The notes under the pieces: generated by a model
Told to the model about the DNA's origin: nothing
What the model saw: the letters and a program-made list of their open reading frames with translations, nothing else
The model's database searches: none
Program-made: the position numbers and the translations under genes
Part shown: positions 4,718-50,918 of the stretch, piece by piece
Position numbering within the stretch: position 1 is the stretch's first letter
Layout: each line of letters opens with the position of its first letter
Source: a virus
Virus record (IMG/VR): IMGVR_UViG_3300032053_000003
Coordinates: 158,392-222,391 of that record
DNA: 64,000 nucleotides
Reading direction: 5' to 3' (one strand)

Positions 4718-5854
4718 TTAATTAACTGTGAAGGTTCTACTATCACCTGTAGTATTCCAATTTTCAACGTCCATAATAATATTTGAAGTAGCAGGAGTGA
4801 ATGTGTATCCTGTTGCTTTTACAGTAATCGTATAACGTCCACTAGTTAATCCTGAGAAACTGTAGTTCCCACCAGCTATTGTGGTAGTAGTCAGAATAGC
4901 ATTATTGTTATCCAAACAAGTCAAAGTGACAGTTGCACCTACCAGTCCATTTCTTCCAGATCCTAGAGATGCCTCAGGGAAAAGTACAGCTCCGAGTAAA
5001 ATAGAAGGTAAAGGTGTAACAACAGGAGCTGGAGTTGCAACAGGAGTTGGATTAGGAGAGCCATGGAACTGTGTACCTGAGTCATCTCTACCTGTGATAT
5101 TTATCAGTACTATTGTAGGACGAGAGTAATTATCAACAGCCGAAAACCTGTACCCAGTCCTTGAAGCTGTTAAATAATAAGAACCATCTTCTACTGTGAA
5201 TTCAAAATGTCCATCAGTATCAGTGAGGGTTGTTCCTGTTACAGGAATACCTAAACTTGTTAATTTGTCACTTCCATCAGCACCTTTGGAGGCAATACCA
5301 GTCGTACCTGTCAATGTAATCGTAACCCCTGATATAGATCCTTGAACAATGTTAAGAGCTACATGGCTTCCTACCAATCCTGAAATCTTGTACTTACTTG
5401 TTGGTGTTGGGGTAGGTGATGGAGTGGAGGTGTCCCTGGCTGTAAAAGCAGAGGTAGCCACACTCTCATTACTGTCAACAGCAACAGAGGTACTGATAGG
5501 TGTGAAAGAGTAGTCATCCGATGATGGTGTTACTGTGTAAGTACCAGCTGTCAGACCTGAGAAAGAATACTCACCATTTTCATTTGTGGTCGTCTCAGCT
5601 TGACTTCCACTGAAGGCAACAGCTACTGCTGCACTGTGGGCAGAGGGCTTGGTTAAGGTAATGGTTACATCAGACAGGGGTTCCCCATTCTGTGTGAGGA
5701 CACCTGACACTGAGTATGTGATAGCAACAGGAGCAGGTGTGCTGGAACCGGAGTCACTGCTTCCATTGCTTCCACCTCCACCACAACCTGATAACAACAA
5801 ACTGATCAATAATACTACTGCTACAGTTAAATAATTTCTAAACTTTGTACTCAT
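4718..5854 (-). CDS. Lipoprotein with three carboxypeptidase-regulatory-like / Cna-B-like beta-sandwich repeats
   Basis: Signal peptide plus lipobox LLLSGC, then a Gly/Ser linker. Three repeats of the pattern GxTVTLT...NGxYSFSGLTxGxYTVT. AAGGAG SD, and the 35-bp motif lies upstream. Confidence 0.65.
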   Translation of the reverse strand: MSTKFRNYLTVAVVLLISLLLSGCGGGGSNGSSDSGSSTPAPVAITYSVSGVLTQNGEPLSDVTITLTKPSAHSAAVAVAFSGSQAETTTNENGEYSFSGLTAGTYTVTPSSDDYSFTPISTSVAVDSNESVATSAFTARDTSTPSPTPTPTSKYKISGLVGSHVALNIVQGSISGVTITLTGTTGIASKGADGSDKLTSLGIPVTGTTLTDTDGHFEFTVEDGSYYLTASRTGYRFSAVDNYSRPTIVLINITGRDDSGTQFHGSPNPTPVATPAPVVTPLPSILLGAVLFPEASLGSGRNGLVGATVTLTCLDNNNAILTTTTIAGGNYSFSGLTSGRYTITVKATGYTFTPATSNIIMDVENWNTTGDSRTFTVN

Positions 5855-7936: not shown

Positions 7937-8650
7937 TCAATCACGGTCCTTCTCCATACAATCAACCCAGGTACGTTGAGAGTTCACACAGAATAGGACA
8001 TGACCTATTTCAGATATCCTCATGGCTGCTCCATCTACCTTTTCAAACAGAGGACTGCCACCAAGGAGAGAGTGTTCATAAGAGAGGATATAACCGATAT
8101 CCCTACAATCTTTGAACCACAGTGGGTCCCTACGAGGTTCCTTGTCTCTCTGGATATTGTGGGCCGATCTTATGATGTCCCTGTACTTGGCTGATATCGG
8201 GAGGTAGGACAACTCTGAAGATCCCTTCATCCTTGTGCCACGAACATGTACAGCCTTTTTGAAAGCATCGTTTTCCAGGACAATGATATAATCCAGGTTC
8301 TGATCACAATACCCCATGAGTTTGGTGCCTTCCTTCTTGCAGGGGATGTACCATACATAGCTGTCCCCATTACCGTGACCACCCCTGTTCCTCTTGGTGT
8401 GACCGTGGGTCTTGAGGTAGTTATGGACATACTCTGCATCTTCCATCATTTTAGGCATGGCATGAACAAAGAAGTTTTGTATAACTTTACTGAGGAAATC
8501 AGTAAAGCTTTGCTGACTATACTCGTATGCTGCTATGAGACTGGCTATTGGATTCTGGGCATAGGATCTGTTATCTTTTGGAAAGTATTTTGTCATTATT
8601 GCAAGGAGTTCTTGAGTACAAAAGGTTGCTGCTGCTTCTATTTCTTTCAT
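7937..8650 (-). CDS. Hypothetical protein
   Basis: 237-aa ORF, translationally coupled to the Thg1-like gene through a 4-nt overlap. Confidence 0.5.
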   Translation of the reverse strand: MKEIEAAATFCTQELLAIMTKYFPKDNRSYAQNPIASLIAAYEYSQQSFTDFLSKVIQNFFVHAMPKMMEDAEYVHNYLKTHGHTKRNRGGHGNGDSYVWYIPCKKEGTKLMGYCDQNLDYIIVLENDAFKKAVHVRGTRMKGSSELSYLPISAKYRDIIRSAHNIQRDKEPRRDPLWFKDCRDIGYILSYEHSLLGGSPLFEKVDGAAMRISEIGHVLFCVNSQRTWVDCMEKDRD

Positions 8651-9534
8651 GACTTCTCCTTGAGTATTGTTTTAAATTGAAGTCTTAAGTAATTTTGGTC
8701 AACTACTAAAATTTTAGGCTCCTCTCCAAACAGGATGACCTCCACACGGTTCTGGACCTGTGTGATAGGAGGCATATCCAGGATCATCACATCTGTACGT
8801 TCTATCATCAGATCAGGGTTCTTCCTGGCATCATGCTTCTCAGGAAGCTTGTCCAGCTCATCAGTGGTAAATTTCCTGGAGGTCCTCCTCTTCTGAATGT
8901 AGGTGCCCCTCTTGAAAAATGCAGGGTAGTCATTCCAGTTTACACCCTTCTCATGAAGCATCTCCTGCATCTCACTGTTGCTCTTCTTATAGAGGACCTT
9001 GTGAGAGAAGTAATTTTGAGCAGCCATCTCTACACTGTTCCTGGTAGCATCTTTCTCTCTCCAGACAAACATGTTGGCAGCTTCCATCAAGGTAGGTACC
9101 TGCCATACCCTGCAGTCAAAAGCAGCTATTAGGGATGCTTTAGAGGGGATATACTCGGCTTTGTGGGTATTGAAGAAACCAGTAGCATAGGATGCAAGGA
9201 CACTGTTCATCTTCTGGACCTTACCATCAAAGAAGATCTTGCTTTTGTAGTCATTACTGTACCATACCAGGCTGATCTCGTCTGACTGACAGTACCCCAT
9301 GTTGGCCTGGGTTTCCTTCACTAGGTATTTGGCAGTCTGTCTCATGAGATCACAGAAGCCTCCGTCATAGGGACGTTTAAGACCCCTGCAGAAGGTATGG
9401 AAGGTCTTACCGTCTATACGACAACAAATAGGTAATAGAGGCAGAAATCTCTGACCTGCCTCAGCTTGTTCATATTCCTTCATACGTGTGTCTAAGGTAT
9501 CCATTTTTACTTTCATACGTAGTGACTCCCTCAA
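8647..9534 (-). CDS. Thg1-like protein (tRNA-His guanylyltransferase family 3'-5' nucleotidyltransferase)
   Basis: RIDGKTFHTF...KPYD, CQSDEISLV, FDCRVWQVP and VWREKDATRNS...AAQNYF align with Thg1 motifs (RIDGKKFH, GESDEYSF, FDSRCVAYP, SWRYVDTHINNLYNTTFW). Probable true start is MKVKMD behind GAGGGAG. Confidence 0.7.
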   Translation of the reverse strand: MRESLRMKVKMDTLDTRMKEYEQAEAGQRFLPLLPICCRIDGKTFHTFCRGLKRPYDGGFCDLMRQTAKYLVKETQANMGYCQSDEISLVWYSNDYKSKIFFDGKVQKMNSVLASYATGFFNTHKAEYIPSKASLIAAFDCRVWQVPTLMEAANMFVWREKDATRNSVEMAAQNYFSHKVLYKKSNSEMQEMLHEKGVNWNDYPAFFKRGTYIQKRRTSRKFTTDELDKLPEKHDARKNPDLMIERTDVMILDMPPITQVQNRVEVILFGEEPKILVVDQNYLRLQFKTILKEKS

Positions 9535-10103: not shown

Positions 10104-11828
10104 TTATTTCATGTAGGTTACAACAACATCTTTTGAACCACGATTGATGACCTGCACATCAGCATTGACAACAGAGGTATAACCATTCTTGCCTTTGTAG
10201 ATCCAGACCTTACCAGCTTTGTTCAAATAGACAATTACCTTTCCATTGGAATCAGTAGTTGCCTGATAGAGGAAGGAACCGTCCTTATCTTTCAAGGTAA
10301 CAAGGACACCACTCAGAGGATGGTTTTCCTGATTCAGTACTATAATGGTTGCTACAACCTTGCTGGTATCAACAACAGGTGGAGCCACAACCACTGGGGG
10401 TTCAGGAATGACCACTGGTGGAGTCACAACCACTGGAGGTGTCACTATAGGAGTTACCACAACAGGTTCAGGAACCACTACCACTGTCACAGGGGGGACT
10501 ACAGGAGCCACTACTACAACAGGCTCAGGGGTCACTGGAGCAGGAGGAGTCACTATAGGCTCAGGGGTTACTACAGGGGTCACAACTGGCTCAGGAATGA
10601 CAGGAGCTACTGGAGCAACTGGCTCAGGCTCAGGTGTCACGATAGGCTCAAAAACAGGCTCAGGCTCTGGAACTGAAACTGGGGGAGTCTCTACAACTGG
10701 AGGAGTCACAACAGGCTCAGCACCAAGAGAGGTAACGAGAGTAACCTGAGTACCCTTGCTTACAGAAGTACCAGCAGCAGGGTCTTGGCTTATAACTGTA
10801 TTGACAGGAGCATCATTGTAATAGGAATCCCATGCACCCACTGTCAACTTTGAATTCACGATAGTCTGTTCAGCCACAGTATCAGAGAGGCTGACAACAT
10901 TCGGTACTGCAACCTTGTACTCATAGATACCGAGGTTCCAAAGTTCTACACCTTTGTAAGGAACAAAAGTGGTATTGCCACAAGCAACCACAGTACCATC
11001 AGCTTTCAATCCAACAGTGGTATCCTCCCCTGCTGAAACCTGGATAATGTTTGTCCAGCCACTCACGTTGCAGCATCCTTTAAAATTATAACCTACAGCA
11101 ACCACAGTCCCATCAGCTTTCAAGCCAACTGTATGACCAGCACCAGCTGAAACCTGGATAATGTCTGTCCAACTACTTACATTGTTCTGACCTTGTTCAT
11201 AGTCACCAGCAGCCACTACGGTACCATCGGCTTTCAAACCAATTATATGACAATAATATGCAGAGATCTGAGTAATGTCTGTCCAACTAGTTGCATCATG
11301 ACTATTATTACTATTGCCACCAGCAGCCACAACAGTCCCATCATTTTTCAGACCGAAAATGTCAGCTTCACCACTTGATATCTGTTTGATCCCTGTCCAA
11401 GTAAGTGCAGCATTCTGACCATAACCATAGTCTCCTACGATTACCAAGGTCCCATCATCTTTAAGTCCAATGGTATGATCACGCAGTGAGACTTCTATCT
11501 GGATAATGTGTGTCCAACCACTTACATTGCACTGACCTGCATTATTGTATCCAGTAGCTACCACTGTCCCATTGGCTTTCAGACCAGCTGTCACAAGGTA
11601 GTCAGCTGAAACCTGAATGATATCAGTCCAGGCACTTACATTAAGGTTACCTAAAGCAGAAGACCCAACTGCTACTACGGTACCATCCGTTTTGAGTCCT
11701 ACTGTAGAGATTTGTCCAGCGTCTATCTGGGGAGGGACTGCTGCAAAAGCAATGGGTGTCACCAAAAAAACCATTGCAAAAGCCAGGGCTAGAAACTTTA
11801 ATACGTTCACGAATGATAATTTCTTCAT
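10104..11828 (-). CDS. Secreted RCC1-like beta-propeller repeat protein with a PASTA-like domain, a Pro/Thr/Val-rich linker and a C-terminal beta-sandwich domain
   Basis: N-terminal signal peptide (MKKLSF...AFAAVPP). About 7 repeats of GLKxDGTVVAxG...W(T)xIIQVSAG. A PASTA-like segment (VVSLSDTVAEQ...VISQDPAAGTSVSKGTQVTLVTSLG). Roughly 130-aa PT-rich low-complexity linker. Confidence 0.65.
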   Translation of the reverse strand: MKKLSFVNVLKFLALAFAMVFLVTPIAFAAVPPQIDAGQISTVGLKTDGTVVAVGSSALGNLNVSAWTDIIQVSADYLVTAGLKANGTVVATGYNNAGQCNVSGWTHIIQIEVSLRDHTIGLKDDGTLVIVGDYGYGQNAALTWTGIKQISSGEADIFGLKNDGTVVAAGGNSNNSHDATSWTDITQISAYYCHIIGLKADGTVVAAGDYEQGQNNVSSWTDIIQVSAGAGHTVGLKADGTVVAVGYNFKGCCNVSGWTNIIQVSAGEDTTVGLKADGTVVACGNTTFVPYKGVELWNLGIYEYKVAVPNVVSLSDTVAEQTIVNSKLTVGAWDSYYNDAPVNTVISQDPAAGTSVSKGTQVTLVTSLGAEPVVTPPVVETPPVSVPEPEPVFEPIVTPEPEPVAPVAPVIPEPVVTPVVTPEPIVTPPAPVTPEPVVVVAPVVPPVTVVVVPEPVVVTPIVTPPVVVTPPVVIPEPPVVVAPPVVDTSKVVATIIVLNQENHPLSGVLVTLKDKDGSFLYQATTDSNGKVIVYLNKAGKVWIYKGKNGYTSVVNADVQVINRGSKDVVVTYMK

Positions 11829-12655: not shown

Positions 12656-13588
12656 TTATAAGGCAAGGCTGAGATCAGCCTTGTGCTCTTCGTGGATGAT
12701 GCCCTGCATATAATCAGCAGCTTTCTGAGCCTGGGCAGCAGCAAGGACTACCATCTTGGTGTCGGCTTTGATGGTCTTTTTCCAAGAGGCCACATATGCA
12801 GCATTGTTTTCAATAGTATTATTTTCAATACCAGTAATGGCACATAAGAAGGCAGCAGTCATCTCAGCAACCAGTTCTTCTTTGCCATAATCGTTGCTAC
12901 CGAAATAGTTCAGGAAGTTTGAACGATGCAGCCTGGACTCATGACCAGTGCTGTGAGCAGCTTCGTGGAACAGTACACAGTAATACTTTTCCATGCTGGT
13001 GAACTGGTCCTGGTCGGGCATGGTGATTGTATCAGGGTCAGGGGAATAGTAAGCCCTGTTAGAGCCATGGTTGATCTTAGGGCATGTGGCATAAAGAGAC
13101 ATGATGTGCTCACAAGCATTTATTGGAGAGAGATCCTTCACAGGGGACTCATCAACCTTGGCAGCAGGAGCCTCAATGCCATCACACTGTTCGATATTGA
13201 ATACTGAGAAGTACCTGAGCATAGGGACTGTCTTGAACTTGGCATTGCCATCTTTGTTCAGAGCAGGGGTACCATCAGCATTAACGGCTGCTTTGCTAAG
13301 GAACTTCCAGAAGATAACCAATGTGGATTTCTCACCCTTACGGACCTGTCCACCTTTTTCCTGGCACTGCTTGTAGGAGAGCCAGTAAGGAGAGGAGTAA
13401 CCCTTCTCTTCAGCAGTGGCAAGGAGCAACCAGGGGTTAATGCCACGATACGGTTTCTTGGTGATAAAATTATACTGAGAAAAGCCACCGTTTCCAACCT
13501 TGTGGGTCCAGGGACGGTTCCACGGAACAACACCCTTATCAAGTAGTTCGATGATTCTGTTAGTAACGATTTCGTAAACATTAGCCAT
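12656..13588 (-). CDS. ardC: ArdC-like antirestriction protein (N-terminal ssDNA-binding ArdC-N domain plus zincin-like metallopeptidase domain)
   Basis: LDKGVVPWNRPW (ArdC-N) and VLFHEAAHSTGH (HExxH). True start is ATG 13588 behind AAGGAG. The ORF track's GTG 13639 lies inside the promoter motif. Confidence 0.7.
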   Translation of the reverse strand: MANVYEIVTNRIIELLDKGVVPWNRPWTHKVGNGGFSQYNFITKKPYRGINPWLLLATAEEKGYSSPYWLSYKQCQEKGGQVRKGEKSTLVIFWKFLSKAAVNADGTPALNKDGNAKFKTVPMLRYFSVFNIEQCDGIEAPAAKVDESPVKDLSPINACEHIMSLYATCPKINHGSNRAYYSPDPDTITMPDQDQFTSMEKYYCVLFHEAAHSTGHESRLHRSNFLNYFGSNDYGKEELVAEMTAAFLCAITGIENNTIENNAAYVASWKKTIKADTKMVVLAAAQAQKAADYMQGIIHEEHKADLSLAL

Positions 13589-13621
13589 AGGGGTTAGCTC
13601 CTTATTGTTTTGTCTTTCTAT

Positions 13622-13656
13622 CCCTATAACGGTTTTCACCCCAGCAGTTTGTACAA
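13622..13656 (-). promoter_or_regulatory. Conserved 35-bp promoter-like motif, copy 3 (consensus)
   Basis: ccctataacggttttcaccccagcagtttgtacaa followed by ctattttgtttatttt. Confidence 0.55.
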
Positions 13657-17266: not shown

Positions 17267-17833
17267 CTAAACTCCTATTTTAAACTTTTTAAGCTTTATT
17301 TTCAGTTTAGAGAGTGTTTCCTCTTCGATCTGTCTTATCCTCTCACGAGAGACACCGAACCTATCCCCAAGCTCTTTTAGTGTGTGGGACTCTTTCATGA
17401 TATGATCCACTACTATCTCACGTTCACGTTTCTTTAAGGTTAAAATGGTATTCCTTATTATTTTATTCAGTTGGATCTTCATTAGATCCTCTTCAATAGT
17501 AGGTACACTTGGTGTCAGGTTATAAAGCAGCTCTTCAGGTATATCAACACTGTCAGTCATGTGGCCTTTCATAAGCCTTTGTCTTGTCTTATGACTGTTC
17601 AGATTGAATCTGTCTATGGATATTATTAAACCTTGTATTCCCATGTTGATAGTATCAGTATCGGCATGTTTCAGGGTCTTGGCTATGTAAACAACCAGGG
17701 ACAGGTGAGATAACACAAGGGTATCCCTTGCTTCTTTACTCCCTGATTGAGCAGCCGTTATTAGCTCTTTTTCCTGCTCCCTGCTCAGTACTATTCTTTC
17801 AGTATAATATTTTGGAAGTTCATATTCATACAT
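17267..17833 (-). CDS. Phage-encoded sigma-70-family sigma factor
   Basis: Region-2-like AAQSGSKEARDTLVLSHLSLVVYIAK. Region-4 HTH LKELGDRFGVSRERIRQIEEETLSKLK. Confidence 0.8.
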   Translation of the reverse strand: MYEYELPKYYTERIVLSREQEKELITAAQSGSKEARDTLVLSHLSLVVYIAKTLKHADTDTINMGIQGLIISIDRFNLNSHKTRQRLMKGHMTDSVDIPEELLYNLTPSVPTIEEDLMKIQLNKIIRNTILTLKKREREIVVDHIMKESHTLKELGDRFGVSRERIRQIEEETLSKLKIKLKKFKIGV

Positions 17834-17864: not shown

Positions 17865-18542
17865 TTAAAACCTACGACACTTCACTTGCCATACAGAATT
17901 GCTTTTCTCTTTGGTACAGAGTGATAATTTAGCCTGGGGATTCTTAAGAACCAGACCCTCATCTTCAGTGTTTCCAAGAGAGTTGTAGAGGGTCTCAAAT
18001 CCGATGTTATAGTTGTTGGCTATGGTGATATTATCTGAGATTACATCATACTGAGAATGGGACTCCTTCACCCTGAATAAGTTATGGAGAAGGTTGTACC
18101 TGTCAATATACTTGGTCCCTATAAGGTAATTATTGTTGGCTACAAGTAGATCATGGATGAACATGGTGTTCTTGATGTGCTTGGTCTTGCTGTGAAGCAG
18201 CTCAAAACAAAAGTAGTACCATCTGTCAGGAAGAGAGTAGAATGGGTCTAGGATCTCAGCAGGTGGGCTCCACTGCTTATGCTCTGTACCTTGCCTTGTC
18301 TTGAAGATGAATTTCTTATCAGGAGACACAGCCAGGATAGAACCTGTTCCATTCTTCTTAATCTGGGCCACATACCTCTTCTTCTCAAATACATTCAGGG
18401 TATCTGACCTAATGATGTTCTCAGGTCTTGGAGGGAAGAGGAATATGAAACCGTTGTACTTTATAGCTTTCATGCACAAGTTTCCGTGCCTGATCTTACT
18501 TTTAAAAGTTCGTTGCATACACAATCCCTTGCTACACAGCAT
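17865..18542 (-). CDS. Small ATP-dependent ligase-like nucleotidyltransferase (candidate RNA/DNA ligase)
   Basis: KKNG resembles motif I KxNG. EGLVLKNPQAK resembles motif V EGhhhK. Weak similarity only. Confidence 0.4.
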   Translation of the reverse strand: MLCSKGLCMQRTFKSKIRHGNLCMKAIKYNGFIFLFPPRPENIIRSDTLNVFEKKRYVAQIKKNGTGSILAVSPDKKFIFKTRQGTEHKQWSPPAEILDPFYSLPDRWYYFCFELLHSKTKHIKNTMFIHDLLVANNNYLIGTKYIDRYNLLHNLFRVKESHSQYDVISDNITIANNYNIGFETLYNSLGNTEDEGLVLKNPQAKLSLCTKEKSNSVWQVKCRRF

Positions 18543-36643: not shown

Positions 36644-37006
36644 CTATCTTAGAATAGGAAACACATATTTAGTCAATCCTTTTTCAGTGGCTACTTCAAT
36701 CATGTTGGTTGTTCCAGGGCTTCTCTTATCATAATCATAAAGGGCAAGGAGTGCTCCTTCCTTACCTACATAGTTAGCCATCCTAGCATTTCGTATCATC
36801 CCAGCCTTCTTGCCCCAGCCCTTCCAATCAGCATCAAATCTCTTTATGGGTATGTTGTGCTCTTTAGCCCACCTCTCACCCATGGTGTCAACTCCACGAG
36901 CACCTCCACTGACCACCTCAGTTATCTCCCATGTAATTTGTTCAATAGCCAGTAACAGATCCTCATAATTATTGTAGTCTCTAGGTCCTGCAATTATAGT
37001 ACGCAT
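36644..37006 (-). CDS. SLOG-superfamily (DUF2493-like) protein
   Basis: SGGARGVDTMGERWAKEHNIP...ADW...AGMIRN..M...ALLALYD. Confidence 0.45.
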   Translation of the reverse strand: MRTIIAGPRDYNNYEDLLLAIEQITWEITEVVSGGARGVDTMGERWAKEHNIPIKRFDADWKGWGKKAGMIRNARMANYVGKEGALLALYDYDKRSPGTTNMIEVATEKGLTKYVFPILR

Positions 37007-37738: not shown

Positions 37739-37996
37739 TTAAGCATCCTTAATCAAGTGACCAAAGACTCTTTCAAGAACATCAGGTAACCCCCATGACT
37801 CTACCTTTAGAGCAGCTTCCACTTCAGTAAGGGATTCAAAGGAGTTGGCACCCTCTTGGTAGGTGAACCAGTTATTATTGGCTGTTCTGCAGAGGACAAC
37901 GTGGTCATATCCCTGACCAAAACTTGTAACCTCAGTTGCCATATCAGTGTCATACCTTACGAGCTTCTGAATAGTCTTCATTTCACCCCCCATCAA
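37739..37996 (-). CDS. Hypothetical protein
   Basis: 85-aa ORF. Confidence 0.4.
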   Translation of the reverse strand: MMGGEMKTIQKLVRYDTDMATEVTSFGQGYDHVVLCRTANNNWFTYQEGANSFESLTEVEAALKVESWGLPDVLERVFGHLIKDA

Positions 37997-39531
37997 ATTT
38001 GAATTTCCACGTTCCAGTTATATCGATCCCTTATCACCTTGTCCCTTGGCTGTTTGTCCTCAGGTATCTCTTCTTCACTGAGGATCTTGTGGTCCCACTT
38101 GTAAGCCTTCTCAGCATCATTGAACAACATCCTAAAGTCCTTCCTTAACCCTTCCTTACATTTCAGAACTATGCCAGTGTCAGTGTACACAACATCGAAG
38201 TCCAGACATCCACCCCAGCTTGTTCCCAGAGTGAAGTCCACAACTATAGGACATTCAATCCAAGGATACAGTCTAAGATTTTCTGTCTCACAGATGTGCT
38301 TAACCATTTTAATTAAGAGAGGCAGCTCACCAGGATAGATATCAAACAAAATACTGTCATGGACACTGCCTACTATGATAGATTTCAGACCCTTCCTCTT
38401 CATAGCCTTATAGAGTCTTCCTATAGAGTCTGATACAAGATCAGAGGCAGGACTTTGAATTTTATAGTTGACTGCCCTTCTGTGATTGGCTTCTTTATCT
38501 TCTTCACCTTTGAAGTTTATCATGTTGATAGGGATGATTCTGCCAAACACAGTTTCTACCGTGTGACTAGCATCTACCTCATTGTAGCACTCCTGGAAGT
38601 ACTCACTCAGACTTGTGCACCCTGAAAACAGACCATCCTTGATCTTCTTAGCTGCTTTTGTTGTGATATTGAGCTGCTCACCAAGGCTCTTATCGGAGAG
38701 GCCATAGATCAATCCGAAATTAACCGTTTTAGCCTCTTTCCTCTGTTTTTGTGTAACCTTATCAAGCTTTACCCCAAAGCAAACAGCAGCCGTAGCAGCA
38801 TGAATATCCACACCATTTTTAAAGGCTGTCAGCCACTTCTCTTCATGGGATAGAGAAGCTATTATTCTCAACTCCACCTGGGAAAAGTCAAAGCACCCAA
38901 ATAGACCTCCTACTTTTGCCCATCGGGATATAAAGAGTCTTTTAATATCTGAAACTTTGGGGAGGGTGTGAAATCCTGAAGAATGTCTGCCAGTTATAGT
39001 TCCATTTATTTGATAATTTGGATGATAGATGTTACCATCAAGATTATCACTGGCATTATCAAGATATGAGGATATTAGTTTCCTTAGTCCAGTATAAGCT
39101 GAGAGTGCAATAAGGAATTCCTTGGCATCAGCACTTGTATCCTTGTGTCTGATTAAGGCTTCGATAACATCCTTGTCAGTAGAGGGTGCAGATTTGCCCT
39201 CTTTAACTGATGTCATTTTGAAAAAGTCATCAAACAATATGCTCACTCTTTGCTGTGTGCTTCCAGGATTAAAGACTTTCTTTTCTAGCTCTTCCATGGA
39301 TAGTGGCTTCTTCTTTTTTGCATTATCTATGATGGCACTCTTCATACGAGGACGTATCCAATCTTCTATGAGACTAGCCATGGTGCCCCACTCACCTTTT
39401 GCCATCTCCTCATAAGCATTTTTTATGTAGTCAAAATTGTCTAAGTCAAACCAGATACCCTTAGTCTCAGCCTCGATAAACACAGGCAGTATGTTGTGAA
39501 GTATATCGATAACAACTTTACTCTTGCTCAT
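37993..39531 (-). CDS. Family-A DNA polymerase, polymerase (palm/fingers) subunit
   Basis: Motif A DFSQVELRIIA, motif B RKEAKTVNFGLIYG, motif C VHDSILFD. Confidence 0.85.
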   Translation of the reverse strand: MSKSKVVIDILHNILPVFIEAETKGIWFDLDNFDYIKNAYEEMAKGEWGTMASLIEDWIRPRMKSAIIDNAKKKKPLSMEELEKKVFNPGSTQQRVSILFDDFFKMTSVKEGKSAPSTDKDVIEALIRHKDTSADAKEFLIALSAYTGLRKLISSYLDNASDNLDGNIYHPNYQINGTITGRHSSGFHTLPKVSDIKRLFISRWAKVGGLFGCFDFSQVELRIIASLSHEEKWLTAFKNGVDIHAATAAVCFGVKLDKVTQKQRKEAKTVNFGLIYGLSDKSLGEQLNITTKAAKKIKDGLFSGCTSLSEYFQECYNEVDASHTVETVFGRIIPINMINFKGEEDKEANHRRAVNYKIQSPASDLVSDSIGRLYKAMKRKGLKSIIVGSVHDSILFDIYPGELPLLIKMVKHICETENLRLYPWIECPIVVDFTLGTSWGGCLDFDVVYTDTGIVLKCKEGLRKDFRMLFNDAEKAYKWDHKILSEEEIPEDKQPRDKVIRDRYNWNVEIQI

Positions 39532-40798
39532 TTGTTATCCTCTCATCAAGAGCAGTAAATAAGGCATCATTATAAAAAGTATCCAGAGCAGCATACTCAC
39601 CAAGAATAGAAGTGGGAATGTTGGCATAAGTACGATCCTCTATCTTACGAAACATCTTTATGTAGGTACTTACTGGAAGCTCCCAATTTGGAACACCAAA
39701 CCACTTCGTACAGAGTGTTTTTAGATCAAGATAACCAAAGGTCTGTCTTCCTATCAGTATGTGGGCAAGCAGCAGAGTATCATAGTAAACCCTGATCTTA
39801 TCTAGCTTTGCGATACCCATTGCTATAGCAAAATCTATGTCGAATTTAAGATTGTGGCCCACAATAGGTACAGTCTCTATCATCTCTCCTATAGCATGAT
39901 TAATCCTTACAATATTTTTGGCAGAGAGATCGATATTGATAGGATAGAACTTATTCATATATGGGTAATCCTCATGGTGCATGATGTTAGATATATGAAT
40001 AGGAACTGCTAAGGACTTTTTATTTACCAAGTTATTGTAAAAGGAGTACATGATGATCTTGTGTTTCCATGGAAGGAATCCACTAGTCTCACAGTCATAT
40101 AAAACATACTGAATAGCCTTGTCCTTGTAAGCTTCCACAATAAGCTTGGACTCTTTGATAGCCAAGGAGGGTTCAGCTATCACCCACTTCCTATCTTCCA
40201 CAGGCTCCTCTTTATCATGGTTAAGAGCCTCTCTGACTACGTTACGAAACTCCTTATCTGTTGTTGTGCCTATCTTGCCCCTGATAATATAAGAAGGGTG
40301 GTAGTTGGGGAAGAGCTTCCATACTCTGCCCTCTATGGTTACAAACTGTATATTACCTATCTCTTTTTCAATCCCTTTGTGCTTACCGATGAGGGATGTG
40401 AGAGGGCTGTTACCAAGGGACATGATTGCTGTCTCTTTAGGATTAAAGAGAGACAGCTCTTTATACAAGAAAGGTCGGCACCATTCTATTTCTTGGTTAG
40501 ACGGTTTTCTGGGACCTCGTTCATAATCAAAAGGATCTAGGTAAGGACAACACTTCACTGTGTTGGTTATGTATACAAGACCCTCCTCTTCCCCAAGAAC
40601 TTCTGATAAGAGCTGTCCCGATCTCCCAATGAAGACCTCACCTTCTAAGTCTTCAATTTTGCCAGGAGCCTCACCGATGATAATCAGCTTAGGATGATCA
40701 ATATTACCCCTAGCTCTTATCCTGGGTTTATTACAAAGCCTATGTAGGCCACATGCACCGCAATTATTTTCCATATTGCCCTTACCCTTTTGAAACAA
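39518..40798 (-). CDS. Family-A DNA polymerase N-terminal subunit: family-4 UDG-like domain plus 3'-5' exonuclease
   Basis: UDG-4 motifs IIGEAPG and GRSGQLL with N-terminal Cys residues. Exo I LYDCETSGF, Exo II HNLKFD, Exo III YAALD. Confidence 0.8.
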   Translation of the reverse strand: MFQKGKGNMENNCGACGLHRLCNKPRIRARGNIDHPKLIIIGEAPGKIEDLEGEVFIGRSGQLLSEVLGEEEGLVYITNTVKCCPYLDPFDYERGPRKPSNQEIEWCRPFLYKELSLFNPKETAIMSLGNSPLTSLIGKHKGIEKEIGNIQFVTIEGRVWKLFPNYHPSYIIRGKIGTTTDKEFRNVVREALNHDKEEPVEDRKWVIAEPSLAIKESKLIVEAYKDKAIQYVLYDCETSGFLPWKHKIIMYSFYNNLVNKKSLAVPIHISNIMHHEDYPYMNKFYPINIDLSAKNIVRINHAIGEMIETVPIVGHNLKFDIDFAIAMGIAKLDKIRVYYDTLLLAHILIGRQTFGYLDLKTLCTKWFGVPNWELPVSTYIKMFRKIEDRTYANIPTSILGEYAALDTFYNDALFTALDERITNEQE

Positions 40799-49692: not shown

Positions 49693-50202
49693 TTAGTACT
49701 TAGGGTTTCTCATACTGGTAGGATTCTTCATAGGTCCACCAGGGTTCTTTACCTTTTTCTTTTCCTCCTGGATCTTCCCTTCCTTACCTCTTTTGACCAG
49801 AGCCACCTGATTCATTGGGAACCACTGCTCTTCAACAGGATGCCCTTCTTTATTGAGTTCTTTACTCTGAATGCCTATCCTTACACATCCGTTGATCCAG
49901 AACCCATGGCCTATTACAGAGCCTTTGAATGCACCTACTTTGTCCTTGACCTCATCACTGAGCTGAATATCTATCTCAGGGAATTCAGGAGCCTCAAGGT
50001 CTGTAGCCTCTATGAACTTGAGAGAGGTACCATCGAAGAAGACAGGCTCAATAGGTCTCCCTTCATGAAGCTCTCTGCTCCTCACTCCATACCTATCCTG
50101 ATTGTAAAGGTAGCGTAAGTGTACCACTATCACTCCTTTAAACTCCGTTATGACATCCTGTACAACATCTCCGAGTTTGAAATCATAGCTTTCATTATTC
50201 AT
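49693..50202 (-). CDS. Hypothetical protein
   Basis: 169-aa ORF. Confidence 0.5.
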   Translation of the reverse strand: MNNESYDFKLGDVVQDVITEFKGVIVVHLRYLYNQDRYGVRSRELHEGRPIEPVFFDGTSLKFIEATDLEAPEFPEIDIQLSDEVKDKVGAFKGSVIGHGFWINGCVRIGIQSKELNKEGHPVEEQWFPMNQVALVKRGKEGKIQEEKKKVKNPGGPMKNPTSMRNPKY

Positions 50203-50918
50203 ATATCCTCCTTTGGATACTCTTTTGGTCTTGATAACAAATTTGGTTTAAAATACACTTTGCAATTGGACTTACGTGCTGCAATGAGCAAATTCTCTAC
50301 CCAGATCCATTCTGGTTGTCCTGCTGGCATCTTGGTAGATCTGCTTCTTCCTCCAATGATAACCCAATCAAACATAGACAGGTTAGGTACTCCCATGTCT
50401 TCTTCTAGAGGCTCAAAGGAAACAAATTTGACAGGAGCTTTAATCTTCATGAAGATTTGTCTGGTAGAATCCAGTCTGTCTTTTACATCAATAGTGGCTC
50501 CTACCCATACATTCTCAGGGAAGACGAATTCAAGATATCTTTCTGGGTTTTTTGTAAGTAGCAAATAATTCCATTGTGGGGATTTGGCACATATACCTAA
50601 AACCCTATCGATCCATTTTTTAGGGACCCACTTACCAAACAGATCACCCATAGAACATACAAATACGTTCTTATCACTGAGACTGTTTATCTTCTTGGGT
50701 GGCTTGCTGTTAACAGGTGCATTCAGCCTATTAGCATGGAAGGTAGGTTTGAACCCTTGGGGGTAGAATCTGGCAGCTATGTCACGAGCATAGCAATAGG
50801 TACAGCCATGGTTACACCCTGTGACAGGATTCCAAGACCACCGTGCCCACTCAATCTTGGCTCCTTCCTTACCCTCATTACTTTCATTGAATACACTTGT
50901 TGACTTTGAAGCCATCAT
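50199..50918 (-). CDS. Phage Gp37/Gp68 (DUF5131) family protein, radical-SAM-like
   Basis: WSWNPVTGCNHGCTYCYARD, with a CxxxCxxC motif. Confidence 0.7.
   Translation of the reverse strand: MMASKSTSVFNESNEGKEGAKIEWARWSWNPVTGCNHGCTYCYARDIAARFYPQGFKPTFHANRLNAPVNSKPPKKINSLSDKNVFVCSMGDLFGKWVPKKWIDRVLGICAKSPQWNYLLLTKNPERYLEFVFPENVWVGATIDVKDRLDSTRQIFMKIKAPVKFVSFEPLEEDMGVPNLSMFDWVIIGGRSRSTKMPAGQPEWIWVENLLIAARKSNCKVYFKPNLLSRPKEYPKEDI

Follow-up and report, generated by a model that had tools for sequence, protein, structure and literature searches.

The stretch of DNA analyzed here (the window) comprises 64,000 nucleotides, positions 158,392 to 222,391 of the IMG/VR virus record IMGVR_UViG_3300032053_000003, and represents 64 kb of the ∼237-kb contig of a large uncultured phage. 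On its minus strand we find two overlapping genes whose products carry the domains of a family-A DNA polymerase (PolA) preceded by a uracil-DNA glycosylase (UDG). Gene 1 (39518..40774, minus strand; assigned by Pfam) encodes a 418-amino acid UDG-exonuclease subunit that is 100% identical to P0001 (418 amino acids). Gene 2 (37993..39531, minus strand; assigned by Pfam) encodes a 512-amino acid polymerase subunit, 100% identical to P0121. A first-pass annotation had described these as two open reading frames (ORFs) that overlap by 14 nt, with a GAGAGG box before the second ATG, and we could confirm each of these features. It had let the first gene begin at 40798, and the ORF does reach back to a TTG codon there (426 amino acids); the start is most likely the ATG at 40774, which has AAGGG upstream and is the choice of the gene callers (three sources).

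The stop/start overlap (39518..39531, minus strand; ATGAGCAAGAGTAA) contains the polymerase ATG (39529..39531) and the exonuclease TAA (39518..39520). The exonuclease frame ends in ...GAT GAG AGG ATA ACA AAT GAG CAA GAG TAA, and the polymerase frame, which is +1 relative to it, opens with ATG AGC AAG AGT AAA... and has a TAA two codons 5′ of this ATG. The Shine-Dalgarno sequence of the polymerase gene, GAGAGG (39539..39544, minus strand), is located within the coding tail of gene 1, 7 nt 5′ of the ATG. No homopolymer is present across 39518–39545, and a scan for promoters and terminators between both genes returned no signal over shuffled expectation.

Domain Architecture and Catalytic Motifs

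Gene 1 specifies a family-4 UDG domain (40220..40774, minus strand; Pfam UDG, E value 2.4e-23, residues 31–189 of the 39518..40798 ORF), which aligns with the family-4 UDG TM0511 from Thermotoga (PDB ID 1L9G, E value 4.6e-18). The motifs GEAPGKIED (GEAPG..ED), FIGRSGQLL, TNTVKCC, and YHPSYIIRG are present, and four invariant iron-sulfur cysteines from the CxxC, VKCC, and WC elements (C5, C8, C75, and C99 in P0001 numbering) match those of TM0511. By the 1L9G alignment and a motif census, the window UDG is intact in every family-4 catalytic and [4Fe-4S] residue, and its motifs predict glycosylase activity. The UDG is followed by a DnaQ-like 3′-5′ proofreading exonuclease domain (39539..40123, minus strand; Pfam DNA_pol_A_exo1, E value 2.3e-8, residues 226–420 of the ORF) with the motifs Exo I (DCETSG), Exo II (HNLKFD), and Exo III (YAALD). 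Its residues D227, E229, N308, F311, Y394, and D398 are invariant in nine sequences, and the Exo II acidic residue is Glu rather than Asp in a distant clade of relatives (see below).

In gene 2, the family-A polymerase core (38212..39297, minus strand; Pfam DNA_pol_A, E value 2.9e-73, residues 79–440) covers part of the thumb, the palm, and the fingers, and the 78 residues encoded 5′ of the Pfam match form the start of the polymerase domain. Motifs A (DFSQVELR; D215 and E220), B (RKEAKTVNFGLIYG; R264, K268, F272, and Y276, with Phe at the Klenow-762 position), and C (VHDS; H391 and D392) are invariant among relatives. The two hallmarks of a family-A PolA, namely motifs A/B/C and the Exo I–III acidic residues of the exonuclease, are thus both found, and each motif named in the first-pass annotation is located on the gene to which it had been assigned.

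The AlphaFold2 (AF2) model of the polymerase subunit, which takes in a 72-residue C-terminal domain, has a mean predicted local distance difference test (pLDDT) score of 90.6. A Foldseek search with this model returned Bst, Klenow, and Taq polymerases first (∼438 columns), and the phiLo and YerA41 enzymes were not within the top 50. These two belong, with the SP-15 enzyme, to the UDG-fused SP15-like PolAs defined by Missoury et al. (bioRxiv 10.1101/2025.03.26.645540). For the UDG-exonuclease model (pLDDT 81.5) the best match is the phiLo UDG-PolA (PDB ID 9QHS), then come family-4 UDGs and UdgX, and then the Klenow exonuclease. In phmmer searches 9QHS matches both halves (E values 6e-8 and 5e-32), more weakly than do bacterial UDGs and Klenow. 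The two subunits combine to 930 residues (418 + 512), which leaves the large inserts of SP15-like enzymes absent, in agreement with the AF2 models and alignments.

The C-terminal domain (residues 441–512; 37996..38211, minus strand; delimited in the AF2 model) extends past the canonical PolA end. It is predicted to fold into a β-hairpin, a helix, a strand, a 15-residue basic loop (EIPEDKQPRDKVIRD), and a final strand, and by itself gave no significant sequence match in the PDB. SP15-like enzymes possess a C-terminal domain of ∼80 residues with a β/long basic loop/β motif, to which a role in abasic site bypass has been assigned (bioRxiv 10.1101/2025.03.26.645540). Among the relatives described below, the domain is found in the close clade and the fused enzymes related to it and is absent from the distant split clade. 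It also occurs in fused exonuclease-polymerases that have no recognizable UDG domain: P0126 (L012 350–2761) has the whole of it, and the BLAST alignment with the DNA polymerase of Pseudomonas phage QdP_Psa3 (L014 2115–5315, 1066 amino acids) spans only about its first 30 residues. The signature TGRxSSGFHxxP..SDIKxLFIS is common to the window enzyme, P0126, and the QdP_Psa3 enzyme, and QdP_Psa3 is the only cultured phage in which we found it.

The Two-gene Arrangement Is Shared with Close and Distant Relatives

Three other ENA assemblies contain both genes with zero mismatches over 1.5–2.8 kb, including the junction. The closest relatives of gene 1 are UDG-exonuclease proteins of 415–445 amino acids (74, 69, 63, and 55% identity), and in all three close-relative contigs examined a separate polymerase gene (512–519 amino acids) follows the UDG-exonuclease gene. 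Identities to the window in these close split relatives are 74–78, 69–78, and 63–71%. The junctions differ from one another: L002 has a 14-nt overlap of different sequence, L001 a 4-nt ATGA overlap, and L005 a 5-nt gap. A purine-rich box is maintained inside the exonuclease tail (GGGAGGG in L001, GAGAGG in L002, and AGAGGG in L005), and the tail peptides encoded there differ. Since the stop/start overlap or near-abutment and the Shine-Dalgarno box are kept in the close clade despite this variable tail peptide, translational coupling of gene 2 to gene 1, as proposed by the first-pass annotation, appears plausible. A distant clade (24–29% identity) is likewise split, with a 1-nt overlap, a 7-nt gap, and a 1-nt gap at its junctions, and in L015, one distant split lineage, a 102-amino acid ORF lies between the UDG-exonuclease and polymerase genes. 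This ORF (L015 6196–6504) has two CxxC pairs and is zinc-ribbon-like, and a Mom-like gene is located upstream. In all eight different split contexts examined the two genes are neighbors in the same order.

In the distant phages with a split polymerase, genes for GTP cyclohydrolase I and QueC immediately precede the polymerase (L006 2839–3411; L008 1474–2764; L009 279–863), which suggests 7-deazaguanine DNA modification, and clamp-loader-like AAA+ and RecA genes are found downstream.

Could the split stem from an indel introduced during sequencing or assembly, or from a recent frameshift that has turned a single-chain polymerase into a pseudogene? A small indel could produce the difference at the junction, and continuous collinear ORFs do exist at 58–68% identity (P0241 and P0242) and, in the same synteny, at 47–53% (P0244). 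Against this stand the zero-mismatch copies of the junction in three other assemblies and the closer relatives, all of which are split with different junction sequences. Furthermore, all catalytic motifs are kept in both halves, the second half has an ATG and a Shine-Dalgarno sequence in place, and 81 of the 150 best family representatives (see below) stop right after Exo III. We therefore regard an artifact or a decaying gene as scarcely tenable; the split is genuine, as the first-pass annotation had held, and is kept in relatives from 55 to 78% identity as well as in the distant clade.

Single-chain Relatives and the Lability of the Split

Beyond the cluster to which the window enzyme belongs, its nearest relatives are fused. 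P0241 (1336 amino acids, 62–68% identity) has an intein in Exo II, and P0242 (1478 amino acids, 58–67% identity) has its polymerase region broken by two long insertions, which are probably inteins as well. P0244 (927 amino acids; 47 and 53% identity) and P0245 (923 amino acids) are also fused, and P0244 shares the gene neighborhood of the window, with an intein-bearing DnaB gene upstream and a YAcAr gene downstream. The fused relatives are collinear with the window enzyme across the junction (...LFTLLEKDINETTKVSIDLLHNILPVF in P0242 compared with ...LFTALDERITNEQE* / MSKSKVVIDILHNILPVF in the window), and thus the split loses nothing. From these alignments, fission would amount to a small frame-changing indel in the exonuclease/polymerase linker of a fused ancestor, and a start codon and Shine-Dalgarno sequence would have been recruited in place. 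The first-pass annotation had named relatives with one continuous ORF as an observation that would speak against the split. P0241, P0242, and P0244 are such relatives in the literal sense; they do not overturn the split because closer relatives keep it, and instead indicate that a small indel in a fused ancestor gave rise to it and that either state is readily changed.

Intein-like insertions are located in the GEAPG motif of the UDG (P0246), in Exo II (P0241), and in the polymerase domain (P0242, P0243, and P0125) of these relatives. The Exo II insertion of P0241 (L013 819–4829) is a confirmed intein with a LAGLIDADG endonuclease and that of P0125 is likewise a confirmed intein; those of P0242, P0243, and P0246 are candidate inteins. 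The DnaB genes of L001 and L002 are intein-bearing too, and the window copies are intein-free.

The overlap of two ORFs in different frames, together with the programmed frameshifts known in phages and the inteins common in this family (P0241, P0242, P0243, P0246, P0125, and the DnaB genes of relatives), raises the possibility that both ORFs yield one fused polymerase, either by +1 programmed ribosomal frameshifting or by split-intein trans-splicing. The TAA in the polymerase frame confines any shift to ∼17 nt, and this segment contains no known +1 or −1 slippery motif. Moreover, relative to the exonuclease frame, four junctions place the polymerase frame at +1 and three at −1, which indicates that there is no conserved frameshift site; the direction of the shift would have to vary among relatives, and in L015 a whole ORF lies in between. 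We thus reject programmed frameshifting as very unlikely. Split-intein trans-splicing is excluded, because the exonuclease tail and the polymerase head follow the fused relatives collinearly with at most a few residues to spare, too little for intein halves, and because Pfam finds no intein in either product. A fused product by any such route is accordingly very improbable in our estimate.

To obtain a census of the family, a profile of nine UDG-exonuclease subunits was compared with 1.84 billion cluster representatives, which returned 1,810 proteins at E ≤ 1e-30. Among the best 150 of these 1,810, 81 are shorter than 480 amino acids and end a few residues past Exo III, corresponding to the split form, and 43 of 800–999 amino acids are fused; 12 are longer, and those checked are fused and contain inteins. 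In a neighbor-joining (NJ) tree of the UDG-exonuclease region, the window groups with the split proteins P0002, P0003, and P0004 (82% bootstrap). This group is sister to the fused pair P0241 and P0242 (94% for the joint clade), and the split protein P0005 is placed outside of both (75%). This topology requires at least two changes between the split and fused states in the close clade. On a rough NJ tree built from 149 representatives, parsimony requires at least 19 state changes, a count that is biased upward because tree error inflates it. Judged from these sequences, the family changes readily between the split and fused states, and many of its members have the two-gene form.

Such a history is what might be expected if the two products act independently, the UDG-exonuclease as a free-standing nuclease-glycosylase in repair or host-DNA processing, and the polymerase as an exonuclease-less enzyme whose fidelity or stoichiometry is regulated separately. 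The many fissions and fusions (two or more of them in the close clade, at 75–94% bootstrap) suggest no strong constraint on covalent linkage and perhaps none on strict 1:1 assembly, and in L015 the two genes have lost their adjacency. This view is at odds with the constant neighborhood and order of the two genes in the eight split contexts and with their translational coupling in the close clade. In addition, the exonuclease domain is reportedly required for PolA stability, and for a split T7-like enzyme reassembly of the parts is predicted (Czernecki et al., NAR 2023, PMC10201439). We consider independent action unlikely, and favor two subunits of one replicase.

Repeated Decay of the Glycosylase Motifs

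All UDG motifs are kept in the window enzyme and in P0002, P0003, P0241, P0245, P0246, P0249, P0302, and P0375. In contrast, P0004, P0005, P0242, P0243, P0244, P0300, and P0363 have lost the motif-A Glu/Pro-Gly, the Asn, and/or the His, and have mostly retained the cysteines. The decay has occurred independently in several close relatives and affects split (P0004 on L001 and P0005 on L005) and fused enzymes alike. From these substitutions, glycosylase activity seems dispensable in the family and the domain itself does not. A decay that spares the cysteines, paralleled in N4-like enzymes, argues that the UDG domain may have a structural or DNA-guiding role in addition. The first-pass annotation had offered two explanations for a UDG-like domain on a replicase: a coupling of uracil sensing or processing to replication, and a degenerate domain used for DNA binding. 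The former gains support from the intact motifs and the fused homologs; the latter does not apply to the window enzyme and is pertinent to several of its relatives only.

Genomic Neighborhood

The polymerase genes form part of a replication and recombination module that further encodes a DnaB-like helicase, a separate FEN/5′-3′ exonuclease, an SbcC-like protein, an NAD-dependent ligase (27791..29671), a DHH phosphoesterase, a DNA methylase, RecA, and two superfamily-2 helicases. A Pfam search of the ∼50 window ORFs, covering 64 of ∼237 kb, found no genes for PolX, apurinic/apyrimidinic (AP) endonuclease, thymidylate synthase-like proteins, dUTPase, or dCMP deaminase; nor are thymidine-modification genes found among these ORFs, which give no sign of hypermodified thymidine. 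A YAcAr/SLOG protein is encoded at 36644..37006 (minus strand), and in both L001 and the P0244 contig a YAcAr gene occupies the corresponding place downstream of the polymerase.

Several other minus-strand genes of the window deserve mention. An 892-amino acid ORF (30581..33259) matches the Pfam families MVP_shoulder (E value 4.4e-20, residues 564–648) and Vault_3 (E value 2e-8), and is thus vault-protein-like, which is unusual for a phage replication module. A Thg1-like tRNA-His guanylyltransferase, a member of a 3′-5′ polymerase family, is encoded at 8647..9534 (Pfam E value 3.2e-29), and an ArdC-N anti-restriction domain fused to a zincin-like metallopeptidase (MPTase-PolyVal) at 12656..13639 (both E values < 1e-36). 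Two large proteins (10104..11828 and 4718..5854), one with RCC1 repeats, PASTA, and carboxypeptidase-regulatory-like domains and the other with SdrD-B/prealbumin-like folds, are probably host-recognition or surface proteins. Three further genes code for a sigma-70 region-4 protein (17267..17833), a short ATP-dependent ligase-like protein (17865..18542; the NAD-dependent ligase is separate), and a DUF5131 protein (50199..50918).

Discussion

The two genes probably encode a replicative family-A polymerase of the UDG-PolA group, whose gene has undergone fission at the exonuclease/polymerase linker and whose two translationally coupled products re-associate. Both genes would be co-transcribed, and gene 2 would be translated from its own overlapping ATG by way of the Shine-Dalgarno sequence inside gene 1. 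Gene 1 would thereby supply a 418-residue subunit with the [4Fe-4S] family-4 UDG and the proofreading exonuclease, and gene 2 a 512-residue subunit with thumb, palm, fingers, and the C-terminal domain of ∼70 residues. By analogy with the single-chain relatives, non-covalent re-association of the two would give an equivalent enzyme. For the SP15-like enzymes, cryo-electron microscopy and assays have recently established that the fused UDG reads template deoxyuridine ahead of the active site and that abasic sites are bypassed by the polymerase; PolX and ligase genes co-occur (bioRxiv 10.1101/2025.03.26.645540). As in the fused phiLo and YerA41 enzymes, the window UDG may remove uracil from the single-stranded template, which it would scan in advance of the polymerase site. 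Bypass of the resulting abasic site by the polymerase would follow, possibly with the aid of the C-terminal domain. Phage or host enzymes would complete the repair; an NAD-dependent ligase is encoded ∼8 kb away.

Several points weigh against this proposal. Binding of the subunits to each other is predicted by analogy, from the fused homologs and the T7-like split enzyme, and glycosylase activity of the window UDG from its motifs. The motif decay in several relatives implies that this activity is not essential to the family. As neither PolX nor an AP endonuclease was found in the window, which covers about one quarter of the genome, the published model lacks local support in its repair half.

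More tentatively, and with a confidence that falls somewhat short of even, we propose that the two-subunit form predominates in an uncultured and very large branch of the UDG-PolAs, made and reverted many times at the same linker, in which glycosylase catalysis has been lost repeatedly and the iron-sulfur scaffold has been kept. If so, this branch would be a natural PolA counterpart of α/ε- or DP2/DP1-type replicases, in which the repair and proofreading module could be dosed or exchanged separately from synthesis.

The ingredients of this arrangement are already published: UDG-PolA fusions are known from SPO1, SP-15, YerA41, phiLo, and N4, and exonuclease/polymerase fission from T7-like cyanophages, and there is no new principle involved. 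As far as we have searched, the combination, its metagenomic abundance, the repeated fission and fusion, and the repeated decay of the UDG are undescribed. A split UDG-PolA is not mentioned by Missoury et al. or by Czernecki et al. (PMC10201439), and none is found in a collection of 50,697 deposited phage records. A megablast search of these records with the 2.8-kb region gave no match, and no deposited phage with a split form emerged from tblastn with the distant-clade UDG-exonuclease P0012, whose matches were free UDGs or remote fused enzymes. In IMG/VR, scanning with a back-translated pattern of the polymerase subunit gave no confirmed relative. The papers on phages 0305phi8-36 and PaBG, which we considered as candidates, do not describe a split UDG-PolA, and the SP-15 match in our UDG-exonuclease search is a stand-alone UDG gene and not the SP-15 polymerase.

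A natural, separate glycosylase-proofreading protein provides a ready system in which to study the docking of this module on a polymerase. The split form also allows the need for covalent linkage to be tested, for example with regard to the protection from Ugi-type inhibitors that has been proposed for the cis arrangement (bioRxiv 10.1101/2025.03.26.645540), and makes it possible to ask why the domain persists where its catalysis has been lost time and again. For annotation, metagenomic genes of ∼410 amino acids labeled "uracil-DNA glycosylase family 4" that lie beside an exonuclease-less PolA should be read as halves of one replicase, which affects polA-based virome surveys.

Comparison with Known Systems

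The SP15-like enzymes (SP-15, YerA41, phiLo, and RP13; PDB IDs 9QHS and 9QLH) have the same domain order as the window enzyme, a family-4 UDG with intact motifs, exonuclease, polymerase, and an extra C-terminal domain; the phiLo enzyme is the best structural match of the UDG-exonuclease subunit, and in both cases a DNA ligase is encoded nearby. They differ in being single polypeptides of 1175–1306 amino acids with Insert 1 in the exonuclease and Insert 2 in the thumb, and the PolX and thymidine-hypermodification genes associated with them are not found in the window. SPO1-like enzymes of Bacillus phages and Herelleviridae (SPO1, SP-10, CP-51, and YungSlug) also have a catalytically conserved UDG upstream of exonuclease and polymerase, and an active-type UDG has been described for the UDG-PolAs of SPO1, SP-10, and SP-15 (PMC10201439). 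They provide the best full-length tblastn matches to the UDG-exonuclease subunit among deposited phages (24–26% identity, 93% coverage). In contrast to the window enzyme they are single polypeptides and, as Missoury et al. state, lack a C-terminal domain (bioRxiv 10.1101/2025.03.26.645540), and their hosts and genomes use 5-hydroxymethyluracil, of which the window gives no sign.

The closest precedent for the fission itself is found in T7-like cyanophage PolAs such as that of S-SBP1, in which a frameshift has cut the gene at the exonuclease/polymerase linker, leaving two adjacent genes with overlapping stop and start, and for which close fused relatives likewise exist; the new termini are predicted to be solvent-exposed, and reassembly with preservation of the complex has been modeled (PMC10201439). 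These enzymes belong to a different, T7-like subfamily with Tyr at motif-B position 3 and a thioredoxin-binding region, and have neither a UDG nor the C-terminal domain. By comparison, the exonuclease subunit in the window also carries the glycosylase, and fission of the gene has recurred within a metagenomic family of very large size. N4-like UDG-PolAs (cluster 17 of Czernecki et al.) resemble the decayed relatives of the window enzyme (P0004, P0005, P0242–P0244, P0300, and P0363) in that the UDG is kept as a structural module after loss of catalytic residues. They are single-chain enzymes without the His-bearing hairpin and have their UDG catalytic residues replaced or deleted, whereas the window enzyme keeps them all. 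Poxvirus E4/D4 with its family-B polymerase, Pol III α/ε, and PolD DP1/DP2 are functional analogs, in which a glycosylase and/or proofreading activity resides on a separate polypeptide. These systems involve unrelated polymerase families, whereas the separation described here would represent a recent, reversible fission of a single-chain ancestor.

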